From the sequence record OV754623: a DNA stretch of 64,000 bases. One strand, given 5' to 3'. The notes below the pieces were generated by a model that saw only the letters and a program-made list of their open reading frames with translations, did no database searches and had not been told where the DNA came from. The stretch is from Escherichia phage UGJNEcP1. Position numbers and translations under genes: made by a program. Position 1 is the stretch's first letter; each line of letters starts with the position of its first letter. Positions 32,337 through 62,693 of the stretch are shown piece after piece.

Positions 32337-32705
32337 TTAATTAAATTTGTTTAAACGTTCAATACACTGGACGTAGTTATTCGCGATTTGTTTCTGGGTA
32401 GGCTCTTTACCAGTTGTTTCAACATAGCGAATGAATGCGATTTCAGTAGCCTGTAAGCAATGTTCTTTAACGCGTTGTTCCTTTGACAATGCTACAGTAT
32501 CAGAGTCACGATAACGTTGAGCATGAGCGTCAGCTTGAATCATTCGATTACCTACAGTAACCGGGTCTTCCACTTCAACTTTAGGTTGTTCATATTGTTT
32601 AACATTCGGATTGTAAATCAGTTGGCCAACGTTATTAGGGATAAAGCCATGAGCACCACATCCGGTTAATCCGAATACCATTGCTAAAGCGATTAATTTT
32701 TTCAT
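32337..32705 (-). CDS. Putative lipoprotein
   Basis: 122 aa; signal peptide plus lipobox LTGC (MKKLIALAMVFGLTGC). Confidence 0.6.
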   Translation of the reverse strand: MKKLIALAMVFGLTGCGAHGFIPNNVGQLIYNPNVKQYEQPKVEVEDPVTVGNRMIQADAHAQRYRDSDTVALSKEQRVKEHCLQATEIAFIRYVETTGKEPTQKQIANNYVQCIERLNKFN

Positions 32706-32765: not shown

Positions 32766-32978
32766 CTATTTTAAACTTTTGCGAAATTTGCGTTTTTCTT
32801 GACGAATCTGTCGTTTAGTCGGACGTACAGCAAATTTAACGAAGTCCACTTTGCCGTGTGGAAACTTTTCAGATGCTTCACAATCCATCATTAGTTCCCA
32901 TCCTTCCAAAATAAGAGCTTTCCATTGGGTAGTTGATGCAAATTCGTATGTTGATGGTTTAAACACAGTTGAATACAT
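32766..32978 (-). CDS. Small protein with basic RPTKRQ tail
   Basis: About 70 aa from MYSTVFKP; the C-terminal VRPTKRQIRQEKRK tail is shared with two small ORFs near gene 49. Confidence 0.45.
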   Translation of the reverse strand: MYSTVFKPSTYEFASTTQWKALILEGWELMMDCEASEKFPHGKVDFVKFAVRPTKRQIRQEKRKFRKSLK

Positions 32979-32979
32979 A

Positions 32980-33171
32980 TTAACCTCTGAAGTCTGCTTC
33001 AAAAACTTTCTCATCATTAACAAATGCTTTAACTAATGCATTGTTCACTTCAGCAAGTTGTACCGCAACCCACTCGATTTCTTCGCGATCACCTGATAAC
33101 ATGATATCTTTAGTGAACATCTCACCGCTTTTAAACCAACCGATAAAAGTAACTTTAGTTAATTTGCTCAT
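32980..33171 (-). CDS. Hypothetical small protein (about 63 aa)
   Basis: From MSKLTKVTFIGW; ATGA overlap with the upstream ART-like gene. Confidence 0.45.
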   Translation of the reverse strand: MSKLTKVTFIGWFKSGEMFTKDIMLSGDREEIEWVAVQLAEVNNALVKAFVNDEKVFEADFRG

Positions 33172-33485
33172 ATTTCCTCGCAAAATGCCCATTCAGCGTG
33201 ATAAACTGTAGCGCCTTTAGTATCATTCATTTGAACTACATCTACCGGAGAAATTACTCGATAGAGACGTGGTTCACCTCCATAAGAGCGTGCTGCTCGT
33301 CCTGCATAAATCTTTGCTAAACCGATATCTTCGGTAAAGAATACACGATCCAAGTTTTTCTTACGTCCTGTTTCAGACAGAACTCCTGTTTCTTCAGGAG
33401 GACAAAGCATGTTTTCGATGTTAGCTGAACTACTTGAACCGTGATAAAAAATCTTAAATTCTGCTTTACAATCGATGGTTTTCAT
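33168..33485 (-). CDS. Small protein with an ADP-ribosyltransferase-like H-Y-E signature (tentative)
   Basis: 105 aa; FYHGSSSS (H-G-S), AKIYAGRAARSYGG (Tyr-rich loop) and YHAEWAF (catalytic Glu context) in the order seen in PARP/diphtheria-toxin ARTs; short for a full ART domain. Confidence 0.35.
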   Translation of the reverse strand: MKTIDCKAEFKIFYHGSSSSANIENMLCPPEETGVLSETGRKKNLDRVFFTEDIGLAKIYAGRAARSYGGEPRLYRVISPVDVVQMNDTKGATVYHAEWAFCEEI

Positions 33486-58444: not shown

Positions 58445-60258
58445 TGGTGTTTAACCCTATGCATGATTTCTTTATTTTTACCGAGATTAAATCCGCGTTC
58501 GTTCGGGTTTCCCAAATATCCGCATGTTCTTCTTATGGTGTTCATCTTTTTAGGATCAGTTTCTCCACAAATAGAACAAACAAATCCGTTTTCAGTAGGA
58601 GTCATTTCATGGGTACTTCCGCATGTAAAACATTTATCTACTGGCATATTAACACCAAAATAATCTAAATGTTGTGCAGCATAATCCCATACGGCCTCAA
58701 GACCTTTTAGGTTATTTTTCATATCAGGAAGTTCAACATAAGAAATGTGACCGCCTGTCGCAATGAAATGATATGGTGCTTCACGAGAAATTTTTTCAAA
58801 CGGAGTGATATTTTCTTCTACTGAAACGTGGAAACTGTTAGTGTACCAGCCTTTATCAGTAACATCCTTTACACTTCCATATTTTTCGGTATCAAGTTTA
58901 CAAAAGCGATAACACAAGTTTTCAGCAGGAGTAGAATACAAGCTAAAAGCAAATCCAGTTCTTTCAGTCCACTGTTTAAGATGAGCATTCATTTTAGTCA
59001 AAATTTCCTGACCAATATCACGACCGACAAGAATATTCAATTCGTGAATACCAATGTATCCTAGGGAAACTGAACTTCTACCGTTTTTAAATAACTCAAT
59101 TATATCGTCATCAGGTTTAAGACGAACCCCGAATGCACCTTCTTGGTAAAGAATAGGAGCTACAGTTGCTTTAACACCCTTTAAAGAACTAATTCTACAC
59201 ATCAAGGCTTCAAAACACAAATCCATTCGTTCATTAAATAGCTCAACAAATTTCTGTTCGTTAAATTGTGTTCCAATATAAGAATCTAATGCGATACGAG
59301 GAAGATTCAGTGTTACAACACCAAGATTATTACGTCCATCAAGAATTTCATTACCAGTCGAATCTTTCCATACGCTCAAGAAACTACGGCAACCCATTGG
59401 AGAAACTGGAATTGAAGAACCAGTAATAGCTTTATTATTCTTAACCGAAATAATGTCAGGATACATTCTTTTGCTTGCACATTCTAACGCAAGTTGTTTA
59501 ATATCATAGTTTGGATCATCTTTATAAAGATTAACACCTTCTTCAACAAACATAACAAGTTTAGGAAAAATAGGAGTTATTCCGTCGCGTCCGAGACCTT
59601 TAATACGATTTTTCAGAATTGCCTTCTGAATCATTCGTTCGGTCCAGTCAGTTCCCGTACCAAATGTAATTGTTACAAAAGGCGTTTGTCCGTTTGAACT
59701 AAAGAGAGTATTTACTTCATACTCATACGCTTGAAATGCGTCATAGACATCTTTTTCTGTTTTGGATTGAGCATAATTCAACGCATCAGCGATTTGCCAT
59801 TTTTCTGCATCCTCGATATGTTTTGCATAGGTGCGTTTAACATAAGGAGAAAGAACTTTATCGACATTCGCAAAAGTCGTTCCGCCATATTGATGAGAAG
59901 CAACCTGTGCAGTAATTTGTGCCATAATTGCAGTAGCAACACCAATCGATTTAGGCGTTTCAATTTGAGCATTGCCTAATTTAAATCCATTCTCAAGCAT
60001 CCCCTTTAAATCGACTAAACAGCAATTAGTAAATGGAAGAGCAGGAGAATAATCAATATCATGCATGTGAATGATTCCACTTTCATGCGCATTCATAATA
60101 AAAGACGGGACCATATTTTTGGCAATGTGCTTAGACACAATACCAGCCATAAGGTCCCGTTGAGTTGGAAAAACACGAGAATCTTTATTAGCATTCTCGT
60201 TCAAAAGATCTTTATTAGTTTTATAAATTAATCCTTCAATTTCTTTTTCAATTTTCAT
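58441..60258 (-). CDS. nrdD: Anaerobic ribonucleoside-triphosphate reductase NrdD
   Basis: 605 aa; C-terminal zinc-ribbon cysteines and glycyl-radical motif RRTCGYLG; uninterrupted ORF. Confidence 0.9.
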   Translation of the reverse strand: MKIEKEIEGLIYKTNKDLLNENANKDSRVFPTQRDLMAGIVSKHIAKNMVPSFIMNAHESGIIHMHDIDYSPALPFTNCCLVDLKGMLENGFKLGNAQIETPKSIGVATAIMAQITAQVASHQYGGTTFANVDKVLSPYVKRTYAKHIEDAEKWQIADALNYAQSKTEKDVYDAFQAYEYEVNTLFSSNGQTPFVTITFGTGTDWTERMIQKAILKNRIKGLGRDGITPIFPKLVMFVEEGVNLYKDDPNYDIKQLALECASKRMYPDIISVKNNKAITGSSIPVSPMGCRSFLSVWKDSTGNEILDGRNNLGVVTLNLPRIALDSYIGTQFNEQKFVELFNERMDLCFEALMCRISSLKGVKATVAPILYQEGAFGVRLKPDDDIIELFKNGRSSVSLGYIGIHELNILVGRDIGQEILTKMNAHLKQWTERTGFAFSLYSTPAENLCYRFCKLDTEKYGSVKDVTDKGWYTNSFHVSVEENITPFEKISREAPYHFIATGGHISYVELPDMKNNLKGLEAVWDYAAQHLDYFGVNMPVDKCFTCGSTHEMTPTENGFVCSICGETDPKKMNTIRRTCGYLGNPNERGFNLGKNKEIMHRVKHQ

Positions 60259-60728
60259 TTTAAACTCTTTCTAAGCTGCTTTTTGAATGAAGCTATTAAT
60301 TGTGTTTTAGTATCAGATTCATTATATTCAAATCCTCTTTGAAGCATCTCAGCCATCATTTCCTCTTTACCTAGTCTTGAGAACTCTTTAGTTTTGTCTG
60401 GAACAAAATTAGGATGGATATTATTATCAGAATAATCTTGTTTCAAATAAACAAGAAGAGCTTCAAGCCATTCTAAGTAGTCAACGTTTTGACCTTTCAA
60501 ACCGGAACGGTTGAACTTATGCTTCATTTGACCTTCTGCTGCGTTGCACAGATTACAGAGTAATCCACGAACTCTACCGGCTTTTGGCCCGTTTAATTCG
60601 TGGTCGTGGTCAAGATGGTTACCTTGAACATCAGGGTCTAATTCACGGTGGCAAATAGGACACTTACCGTTCTGTGCATCATAAAATTTTTGTTTTTCTT
60701 CTTTATATTTTGCGCCTGATAATAACAT
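60255..60728 (-). CDS. 49: Endonuclease VII gp49 (Holliday junction resolvase)
   Basis: 157 aa; near-identical to remembered T4 gp49 (KYKEEKQKFYDAQNGKC.IC.REL.PDVQ.NHLDHDHELNGPKAG.VRGLLCNLCNAAEGQMKHKFNRSGLKGQ). Confidence 0.95.
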   Translation of the reverse strand: MLLSGAKYKEEKQKFYDAQNGKCPICHRELDPDVQGNHLDHDHELNGPKAGRVRGLLCNLCNAAEGQMKHKFNRSGLKGQNVDYLEWLEALLVYLKQDYSDNNIHPNFVPDKTKEFSRLGKEEMMAEMLQRGFEYNESDTKTQLIASFKKQLRKSLK

Positions 60729-60756
60729 GATAAACCCTTACCTTAAATAGATAAGG

Positions 60757-60764
60757 GTATTTAT
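60757..60764 (-). promoter_or_regulatory. T4-type late promoter (TATAAATA) for gene 49
   Basis: Minus-strand TATAAATA about 30 nt upstream of the gene 49 ATG. Confidence 0.5.
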
Positions 60765-60776
60765 AATTTAGTAAAC

Positions 60777-60956
60777 GTTATAAAAGTCTCGATGAAAACG
60801 TTTATATTGACGAATCATTTTCTTAGTAGGACGAGTTTCTGAAATAATTGAAGTCCTCATATTTGGATTGTTTGGGGCCCCAATCATAATAAATTTCCAG
60901 GATTTTTGCCCATTTTTTCTTTCACCATAAAATAATTCAGTTTTCATAATAAACCT
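60777..60956 (-). CDS. Small protein with basic RPTK tail (paralog 1)
   Basis: Hand-translated MKTELFYGERKNGQKSWKFIMIGAPNNPNMRTSIISETRPTKKMIRQYKRFHRDFYNVY; below the track cutoff. Confidence 0.4.
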
Positions 60957-61370
60957 TTAACTTAAACGTCTTTCTAAATATTCAATGTATTCCGCTGCGG
61001 CTTGCATCAGATTACCTTCATAGCCATCGTTATTTTCTTGTCCAGCTAATTTAGCTAACGCATAAGAAATTCGTTCACCTTCGAATTCGCCAAGTCCACC
61101 ATCACAAACTACTTGGTCAATTTCTTCGAGTTCATCTATTGAATGGGATTCCCAGAAGCACCAAAGAGAAGTATCACGGTCATAGATGCAAAGTTTCTCA
61201 CCTGTGTTCAACATTACTTCGATAATGCCATGGTCGCCATAACCATCTTCGGTAGTAGTACCAATTACCTTGATGATCGTATCTTTCTTTAATTCAGGAA
61301 ACTTGACTTGTAGTTCTTCATCTTCTTTAACAATCTTGAACCATTTACCGCGAGTTTCAGAAATATTCAT
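60957..61370 (-). CDS. Hypothetical acidic protein (about 137 aa)
   Basis: From the internal Met MNISETRGKW; the track N-terminal extension overlaps the neighbour. Confidence 0.45.
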   Translation of the reverse strand: MNISETRGKWFKIVKEDEELQVKFPELKKDTIIKVIGTTTEDGYGDHGIIEVMLNTGEKLCIYDRDTSLWCFWESHSIDELEEIDQVVCDGGLGEFEGERISYALAKLAGQENNDGYEGNLMQAAAEYIEYLERRLS

Positions 61371-61371
61371 A

Positions 61372-61542
61372 TCAATATTCTCTATAAAAGTTACGATGAG
61401 AACGTTTAGCTTTGCGAAGCTGACGTTTAGTAGGACGAACTGTAAATGGTTGTCCAGAGAAAAAATTCGGATCGGTTTTAATAAGCAAATACCAATCATG
61501 TTTGCCATTTTTTAATAAACGGTACAATAATTTAACTTGCAT
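61372..61542 (-). CDS. Small protein with basic RPTK tail (paralog 2)
   Basis: From MQVKLLYRLLKNGKHDWYLLIKTDPN...VRPTKRQLRKAKR; clear similarity to the 60777-60956 ORF. Confidence 0.4.
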   Translation of the reverse strand: MQVKLLYRLLKNGKHDWYLLIKTDPNFFSGQPFTVRPTKRQLRKAKRSHRNFYREY

Positions 61543-61670
61543 AATAATCTCTTCCCATCTCCATATCAATTAATTCATTTATTGAAGGTTCATCATAACA
61601 TGTTTCTTCGTCGTTGTAAACCGTTTCGACGTCTGGCTCGACAGTCTCCCATCGAGCAGAATACCACGGT

Positions 61671-62027
61671 TTAACCCCGGAGTTTATTGAGCTCTTCATA
61701 ATCAACCCAGGATTCTAGCCCAGATGGCAAATCAGATTCAATGTTCCACAGAAGCTCTTCAATGGCTTGCAGGCGATTATATTCTTCAACGGTAATGGTA
61801 ACCATTGGTGCAACCGGTTCTGCCTTTTTAACCATCATATCGTTCATCAGGACGTAAAGGTCATCACGAACGACAGTGTCGTTCCAACCCCATGATTTGG
61901 CTTCGTAAGCTAATGATGAAGGGAGCACATTTAAAACTTCAATAATAGTTGGAGCATCAGGACCAAGTTCATTGGCACAAACTTCGTATACATCTTGGAA
62001 ATCTTTAAGATTTAATGAATATGTCAT
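61671..62027 (-). CDS. Hypothetical acidic protein (118 aa)
   Basis: ORF. Confidence 0.5.
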   Translation of the reverse strand: MTYSLNLKDFQDVYEVCANELGPDAPTIIEVLNVLPSSLAYEAKSWGWNDTVVRDDLYVLMNDMMVKKAEPVAPMVTITVEEYNRLQAIEELLWNIESDLPSGLESWVDYEELNKLRG

Positions 62028-62287
62028 TTAAAATATTCTCGCAGTTGATCAAATCCACCAATGTGACTTCCGTCAGGAGCAAACACTTGAGGCATAGTCA
62101 ATCCAACTTGTGATTCGCGTCCAAGCTTAACAAGAAGCTCAGTAATTTTCTCATCGTCTAACACACCTTTTTCTGGCATAACATTAATGAATTCGAATGG
62201 CTGTTTCTTAACAGTCAGCAATCGTTTCGCATTATCACAATAAATGCATTTATGAATAGTAGAGTCATACCCATACACTTTAAACAT
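62024..62287 (-). CDS. nrdC: Glutaredoxin/thioredoxin NrdC
   Basis: From MFKVYGYDS; near-identical to remembered T4 NrdC (HKC.YCDNAKRLLTVKKQPFEFIN.MPEKGV, LTMPQVFAPDGSHIGGFDQLREYFK). Confidence 0.9.
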   Translation of the reverse strand: MFKVYGYDSTIHKCIYCDNAKRLLTVKKQPFEFINVMPEKGVLDDEKITELLVKLGRESQVGLTMPQVFAPDGSHIGGFDQLREYFK

Positions 62288-62693
62288 TATTTTTCCTTTC
62301 ATCGATTAAATATGCAACGCCAAATACAATACATGTAATAAAACCTGTGATACAGATAGAAACCAACAACACCGTACCAAAGAACCAAATCAGGTTATCT
62401 TTAGTAGTTTGTTTGATATCCATCTCACGAATTTCTATAGCTATCGTATCACCTTTATTCAGAAGCGTATAAAACGACGGTGATACATGCCTGTCAAAAA
62501 CTCGACCTTGTTCATCTTTATAAACTGCAATAAATTCTAATTTAGAATATTTTCCTGTAGATTGACCTGAAATTAATTCCACTACCTCCACAGGAATTAC
62601 TTTAGTTTCCATGTAAGTATTCTGGCTGTTCCAAATGAATGGAATAATAGCAAAAACTAAAGCTGCGATAAAACAACGAAGGCTATATCTCAT
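62280..62693 (-). CDS. Membrane protein (137 aa)
   Basis: N- and C-terminal hydrophobic segments. Confidence 0.5.
   Translation of the reverse strand: MRYSLRCFIAALVFAIIPFIWNSQNTYMETKVIPVEVVELISGQSTGKYSKLEFIAVYKDEQGRVFDRHVSPSFYTLLNKGDTIAIEIREMDIKQTTKDNLIWFFGTVLLVSICITGFITCIVFGVAYLIDERKNNV

Follow-up and report, generated by a model that had tools for sequence, protein, structure and literature searches.

TifA and other small anti-toxin proteins of T-even phages

TifA is one of a small number of phage counter-defence proteins whose mechanism has been worked out, and this mechanism is unusual: an RNase toxin is trapped on RNA. The study of Guegler et al. 2023 (PMC10853763) describes an N-terminal three-stranded sheet followed by a C-terminal helix, which is capped by a conserved Pro-Thr pair. 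On its own, TifA is recovered together with a heterogeneous mix of cellular RNA, and it binds RNA, ssDNA and dsDNA with no clear sequence preference. Synthetic TifA from RB69 binds RNA with a KD of 0.36–2.3 µM. Both the P53A/T54A and the K55A/R56A/R59A mutants lose RNA binding together with ToxN neutralisation, and the same two mutants of T4 TifA lose co-immunoprecipitation of ToxN. 16S rRNA is enriched in the ToxN–TifA complex, and it has been proposed that ToxN is trapped on abundant RNA, notably 16S rRNA. Residue 41, located in a loop, tunes the inhibition of ToxN. In the same study, none of six TifA homologues (from JS98, VR7, EcS1, vB_EcoM_005, PM2 and CB4) neutralised any of the ToxN/TenpN tested. 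Since these six homologues were inactive, family membership by itself predicts neither anti-ToxN activity nor any known target.

Other anti-toxin proteins of T4 are also small, early and accessory. Dmd and AdfA (gp61.2) are clustered in the 'anti-TA island'. Dmd binds the toxins RnlA and LsoA directly, with no RNA cofactor described. PinA inhibits the Lon protease of the host, and on this basis a review counts it among anti-TA strategies (PMC10286901).

The tifA gene of an RB69-like phage

The window analysed here is a stretch of 64,000 nucleotides of Escherichia phage UGJNEcP1 (OV754623). Its positions 60200–62400 show 100% identity with Escherichia phage UGJNEcP2 (OV877511) and 97.7% with RB69 (Mosigvirus), and by this similarity its source can be assigned to an RB69-like T-even phage of the genus Mosigvirus. 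Three small genes of this window, hereafter A, B and C, are the subject of this work (Table 1). All three, as well as every other gene discussed, are encoded on the minus strand.

Table 1. Positions of the TifA-family genes and their neighbours in the window
Feature	Position	Strand	Description and basis
Gene A (RB69ORF087c equivalent)	60768..60947	-	59 aa, ATG start; compact TifA-family (DUF7279) protein
RPT cap and basic helix of A (R39-Y59)	60771..60833	-	Sequence, invariant columns, AF2 helix 42-58
pin (PinA, host Lon protease inhibitor)	60957..61370	-	137 aa; Pfam Inhibitor_I24, E 2.9e-47; RB69 and OV877511 annotation
Gene B (RB69ORF089c equivalent)	61372..61542	-	56 aa from ATG; compact TifA-family protein
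RPT cap and basic helix of B (R36-Y56)	61375..61437	-	Sequence and alignments
Gene C, tifA (gp61.4)	32766..32978	-	70 aa; 100% identity to RB69 gp61.4
tifA R52-K70 region (P53-T54 helix cap, K55/R56/R59)	32769..32825	-	Numbering fits published mutants; AF2 helix 55-69
dmd (antitoxin against RnlA/LsoA)	32980..33171	-	Pfam Dmd, E 2.4e-20; PHROG 2102; annotation

Gene C shares its whole protein sequence with RB69 gp61.4 (NP_861728.1) and 57% identity with T4 TifA. It lies 1 nt downstream of dmd and in one operon with it, matching the order found in T4 and RB69, and this synteny argues that C is the tifA orthologue. Protein identity and gene order establish C as TifA, which has been published as an RNA-binding protein that inhibits the bacterial defence toxin ToxN. 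The residues R52-P53-T54-K55-R56-Q57-I58-R59 of C fit the numbering of the mutated residues, so the RPTK(R/K)xxR tail is an experimentally defined RNA-binding element. The preliminary description of this DNA had suggested from the letters that this tail looks like a nucleic-acid- or ribosome-binding peptide, and in the case of C RNA binding had already been demonstrated by experiment (PMC10853763).

In the AF2 model of C, strands were predicted at residues 2–6, 27–33 and 43–49 and the helix at 55–69. The strands are joined by a low-confidence loop (7–26) and a second loop (34–42) that includes H41. After the cap, the helix carries the basic residues K55, R56, R59, K62, R63 and R66. According to the published mechanism, C binds RNA via the helix and contacts the ToxN endoribonuclease via the sheet and the loops. 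The proposed trapping of ToxN on abundant RNA such as 16S rRNA disarms the type III toxin–antitoxin defence ToxIN.

Two further members of the family flank pin

The other two genes lie about 28 kb away, in the order B, pin, A, followed by gene 49, which starts 39 nt downstream of A. Gene A is thus located between pin and gene 49, and gene B immediately upstream of pin. The three small ORFs had been correctly reported, as had a 137-aa gene between two of them, close to gene 49; this 137-aa gene is pin. The coordinates given for B and C were exact. Those given for A (60777–60956) had the right length but were shifted by +9 nt, position 60956 being the upstream end of the open frame and not the start codon. 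Ribosome-binding sites upstream of both A and B appeared plausible on inspection of the sequence, with an AAAGG motif 7 nt 5' of the A ATG. The B ATG overlaps the 3' end of a gp49.1-like gene by 11 nt. A TTG nine codons upstream of this ATG is an unlikely start because the alignment of A and B begins at the ATG. In both OV877511 and RB69, gene A is annotated as hypothetical.

A and B are paralogues, as had been proposed (BLASTP 37% identity, E 1e-11). All three proteins matched Pfam DUF7279 (PF23945), with E-values of 2.1e-13 for A, 1.1e-14 for B and 3.5e-20 for C. Scores of 50.4 (A), 54.5 (B), 72.1 (C) and 72.7 bits (T4 TifA) all pass the curated gathering cut-off of 24.5 bits. C had been linked to the other two through its tail only, and the likeness extends well beyond it: the DUF7279 match covers residues 18–68 of C and 7–56 of A. 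Among PHROGs, A (E 3.7e-29) and B (E 5.8e-27) fall in phrog_3272 and C in phrog_2375, with cross-matches between both groups. The hhalign comparison of the A/B-type profile with the TifA-type profile placed A 10–56 on C 20–69 (97.7%, E 1.4e-12), a match that spans strands 2 and 3 and the helix. Pairwise identity of A and B to TifA is about 27–31%. No NCBIfam model matched.

Gene C is already known and, on these profile matches, A and B are further members of the known TifA/DUF7279 family. Beyond what had been noticed at first, the family is catalogued (Pfam DUF7279; PHROG 3272 and 2375), one of its members is a characterised anti-defence protein and the homology exceeds the tail. Our literature searches found no mention of A or B (RB69ORF087c and RB69ORF089c) or of a link between DUF7279 and TifA, and the two TifA papers (PMC9391042, PMC10853763) neither mention several paralogues in a single genome nor have the pin-linked type among the proteins that they tested. 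Pfam DUF7279 can now be linked to a characterised protein.

A regular-expression search for RPT[KR] followed by a basic tail in the six frames of the window retrieved A, B and C only. All open frames of the window, and those in the other 105 kb of the identical genome OV877511, were also searched with the family HMM. The HMM retrieved the same three proteins, the next best match having an E-value of 0.16, so this phage has exactly three family members, all of them in the window. Word-indexed protein searches returned only 7 and 26 relatives. An exhaustive profile search of 1.8 billion proteins found 28 representatives (50% identity, E at most 1e-3), which indicates that the family is genuinely small. 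The residues RPTK, R, K, R and R, which in A are R39, P40, T41, K42, R46, K49, R50 and R53, show no variation across A, B, C and their homologues. At the DNA level, mean column identity among the three genes is only 64% and synonymous differences occur within the motif, so the conservation acts at the protein level; a repeated DNA element was considered as the cause of the shared tail and is rejected on the same grounds, together with dN/dS values well below 1.

A and B retain the capped basic helix of TifA but not its loops

The AF2 model of A (pLDDT 87.8) contains strands at residues 2–9, 15–24 and 27–36 and a helix at 42–58. It retains the sheet, the PT cap and the helix of TifA. Between the models of C and A, the 20-residue β1–β2 loop is reduced to a 5-residue link and the 9-residue loop containing residue 41 to a 2-residue turn. 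B aligns with A with a single 3-residue gap, and we infer from this alignment that it adopts the fold of A. After the cap, basic positions at i, i+1, i+4, i+7, i+8 and i+11 form a stripe on one face of the helix. This stripe consists of K42, K43, R46, K49, R50 and R53 in A and of K39, R40, R43, K46, R47 and R50 in B. Predicted isoelectric points are 10.4 for A and 10.8 for B.

Compared with TifA, the paralogues A and B are reduced: the long loop between β1 and β2 is missing, as is most of the loop around residue 41. Like TifA, they are small DUF7279 proteins of high pI with a three-stranded sheet, a C-terminal helix, a Pro-Thr cap and a six-residue basic stripe containing the equivalents of K55, R56 and R59. 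Unlike TifA, which has 70–85 residues, they are 56–59 residues long, have a short link and a tight turn in place of the approximately 20-residue β1–β2 loop and the residue-41 loop, and have no C-terminal extension. TifA adjoins dmd and belongs to phrog 2375, whereas A and B adjoin pin and gene 49 and belong to phrog 3272. Two features of a TifA orthologue are thus absent from A and B: synteny with dmd, since both flank pin, and the ToxN-contact loops. For this reason, we call them TifA-like paralogues and not TifA. Because the loops that published models and mutants connect with ToxN binding are missing, the TifA mechanism is not simply transferable to A and B. Nucleic-acid binding by A and B is predicted from homology, the cap and the basic stripe being kept.

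The six inactive homologues from JS98, VR7, EcS1, vB_EcoM_005, PM2 and CB4 belong to the same family and have the PT-capped basic helix. They have diverged in the sheet and loop regions, as have A and B. However, this panel was chosen for phylogenetic clusters and consists of full-length, loop-bearing proteins, and the compact pin-linked type falls outside it.

Searches for more distant relatives added little. The family profile gave no match among PDB sequences, and a Foldseek search of the A model against the PDB gave no match below E 0.39. In that search, a resemblance to dsRBD and Pur-alpha folds was dropped as not significant. Against BFVD, Foldseek retrieved small proteins of Salmonella phage S16, Citrobacter phage Merlin and Serratia phage CBH8, and the matches above noise also include a 29-aa fragment from an O157 typing phage. 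None of them has an assigned function.

Distribution and selection

With tblastn, matches to A were found in 355 phage records, 55 of which are at least 80% identical to A. Most of the remaining matches are to A-type genes from other T-even genera (Escherichia, Shigella, Yersinia and Salmonella phages), and some of the weak ones are B genes of Mosigviruses that lack A. Several hundred of the 355 records, from several genera, have an intact A-type gene. In every gene-49-containing locus examined (Mosigvirus, one T4-like locus and JS98-like loci), the A-type gene is located directly upstream of gene 49, and pin is directly upstream of A in all five of these loci with a detectable pin. B matched 222 phage records, with at least 80% identity in 145 and at least 99% identity in 72. 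All B-bearing records and loci whose taxonomy was checked are Mosigvirus.

A and B are real genes under purifying selection. In pairwise Nei–Gojobori comparisons, dN/dS ranged from 0.02 to 0.25 among A-type genes, with dS up to about 1, and from 0.08 to 0.24 among B genes, the latter range leaving out pairs with a B/A chimera (see below).

Loss, recombination and a relic in T4 PinA

Within Mosigvirus, a cassette of roughly 190 bp that contains gene A (corresponding to 60768–60956 of the window) is either present or absent. In two Mosigviruses, RPN187 and F27, gene A is missing owing to a clean indel, and the stop codon of pin is directly followed by the TAAATACCC leader of gene 49 (loci L020 and L021, around position 1798). 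In O157 typing phages, A is split. The RB69 reference has a run of A7 instead of A6 in codons 10–12 of B (61508–61513 of the window; locus L001, 1673–1881), and the extra A frameshifts the gene, so that B is annotated in RB69 as the 38-aa ORF089c. The longer run could be due either to genuine slippage in the homopolymer or to an error in the old sequence. As each of the two genes is lost or disrupted in some related phages, neither is essential. Such gain and loss is accessory behaviour typical of counter-defence genes.

The two paralogues also shape the genome around them. In a phiE142-like IMG/VR contig (L015, 2501–2671), a B/A chimera is immediately followed by gene 49, and pin and most of A are deleted. 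The crossover took place in the 9-nt stretch ACTTTTATA common to the 3' ends of A and B. Short 3'-end homologies have thus deleted pin in one phage lineage, and because of this recombination the phiE142-like Mosigvirus has no Lon inhibitor at this locus. The pattern agrees with the short-homology recombination that Srikant et al. (PMC9391042) described at tifA amplification.

T4 has no A gene. The last ~25 residues of T4 PinA (ETQISFSDRMIQQYKRLHQMFYNT) are outside the PinA Pfam domain (locus L004 of NC_000866, 4898–5383, minus strand). The DNA encoding this tail consists of a copy of the spacer between pin and A (20 of 21 nt identical) and an A-type 3' end (41 of 46 nt identical). Judging from these matches, the C-terminal tail of T4 PinA is a relic of an A-type paralogue fused to pin. 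A T4-like IMG/VR contig (L008, 1961–2677) carries both the relic tail and an intact A.

Possible functions of A and B

In the reading that we consider likely, A and B bind RNA and serve in counter-defence as TifA does, but with a target different from that of TifA. They would be translated, probably early in infection, and would bind RNA through the capped basic helix, as TifA does, while the small face of the sheet would engage a host factor. A and B would then be counter-defence adaptors directed at another host factor associated with RNA, an RNase toxin other than ToxN being the most plausible one. Because the loops are missing from A and B and six loop-bearing homologues are inactive, we think redundancy less likely than a target different from ToxN(Ec). 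The neighbourhood of pin fits a counter-defence role, as does the PHROG label 'antitoxin' matched by half of a nearby 118-aa ORF (see below). PinA blocks the degradation of antitoxins by Lon, and together with A and B it may form a second small anti-toxin cluster. A and B are comparable to Dmd and AdfA as small accessory proteins encoded in a cluster, although they are unrelated in sequence and located elsewhere.

The T4 response to ToxIN offers an argument for a different role, as additional ToxN inhibitors that provide a diverged form of gene dosage or cover ToxN alleles escaping TifA. According to Srikant et al. 2022 (PMC9391042), a roughly tenfold amplification of tifA lets T4 escape ToxIN carried on a plasmid. 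RB69 is by nature the least sensitive to ToxIN and has an intact A plus tifA, and no RB69 tifA deletion is described in the available text of the TifA papers (PMC9391042, PMC10853763), which leaves room for A. The helix needed for ToxN binding is also conserved. A could therefore add to the low ToxIN sensitivity of RB69, which has so far been attributed to TifA(RB69) alone; the intact A is a possible confounder of that attribution. However, in A and B the loops implicated in contact with ToxN have been lost or substituted, sequence identity to TifA is low, and even the more TifA-like homologues of JS98, VR7, EcS1 and others were inactive against all ToxN tested (PMC10853763). ToxN inhibition by A and B thus seems to us rather unlikely. 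We regard it as similarly improbable that A and B bind RNA or ribosomes in a general way, with no specific defence target, and act as an RNA chaperone, an mRNA protector or a modulator of translation during host take-over. Such a role would suit very basic proteins (pI above 10) that contain little beyond a sheet and an RNA-binding helix, and TifA alone shows broad nucleic-acid binding with no clear sequence preference (PMC10853763). Nevertheless, the patchy presence of A and B among close relatives is ill-suited to a general housekeeping function, and the sole characterised member of the family acts through a specific protein partner (same source).

Both ORFs are small, the RB69 record has a frameshift in B, some phages lack A or have it split, and the 3' ends of both genes serve as recombination substrates. 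These observations could point to decaying duplicates or chance ORFs whose shared tail is a repeated DNA element. This reading is largely refuted, and we give it a very small probability: dN/dS is well below 1 in many pairs, at dS values reaching about 1, A-type genes remain intact in many phages of several genera, A and B match the Pfam domain over its full length, the three genes differ at synonymous sites within the motif, and the fold of A was predicted with confidence. The reading that we prefer, RNA-dependent counter-defence against a target other than ToxN, has a broader version, which we put forward only tentatively and think doubtful as a whole. The TifA scaffold might be a modular 'RNA-glue' adaptor, with a constant RNA-binding helix and a variable sheet and loop face that selects which host protein is trapped on RNA. 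A and B would represent two non-ToxN specificities, directed perhaps at other type III toxins or at other RNase or tRNase defences, and the region around PinA would be a second, recombination-prone anti-toxin island. The term 'RNA glue' recalls HIV-1 Vif, a viral antagonist that needs an RNA bridge to the host restriction factor APOBEC3 and that Guegler et al. used as an analogy for TifA (PMC10853763). Applied to A and B, the likeness would be one of mechanism only, with no homology involved.

RB69-like phages thus carry, beside pin, two more conserved and reduced copies of the TifA scaffold. As the helix is kept and the target-selecting loops are lost or changed in A and B, the RNA-binding and targeting functions can be compared directly. 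At 56–59 residues, both proteins are chemically synthesisable candidates for new anti-defence specificities.

Other features of the two loci

Several neighbouring ORFs were also noted. Two genes upstream of B, a 118-aa ORF (61671..62027, minus strand) matches phrog_3402 through its residues 64–118 (E 1.8e-31). This PHROG is labelled 'antitoxin from a toxin-antitoxin system', a label left unconfirmed by the Pfam and PDB searches, which gave no significant match for this ORF. RB69 annotates the same stretch as two short ORFs, 091c and 092c. At the tifA locus, a 105-aa ORF (33168–33485, minus strand) is located immediately upstream of dmd and overlaps it; it belongs to phrog_2110 and has no Pfam match. 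This ORF appears to form an operon with dmd and tifA within the proposed anti-TA island. Between tifA and imm, a 122-aa ORF (32337–32705, minus strand), annotated as imm.1 in RB69, has a lipoprotein-like N-terminus (MKKLIALAMVFGLTGC) and matches Pfam DUF5481 (E 2e-9).

Promoter and terminator scans around both loci gave matches no commoner than in shuffled sequence. A TTTACA-17-TATGAT site with a TG is present upstream of B (61620–61592), for which no promoter is claimed. Directly 3' of the stop codon of gene A, a T4-type late promoter box, TATAAATA, was found at 60758–60765 (minus strand). It is followed, just 5' of the start of gene 49, by a 7-bp hairpin (ACCCTTA/TAAGGGT; 60752–60758 and 60734–60740, minus strand). 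This box and hairpin (60734–60765) probably correspond to the known control of T4 gene 49 by a hairpin and a late promoter.
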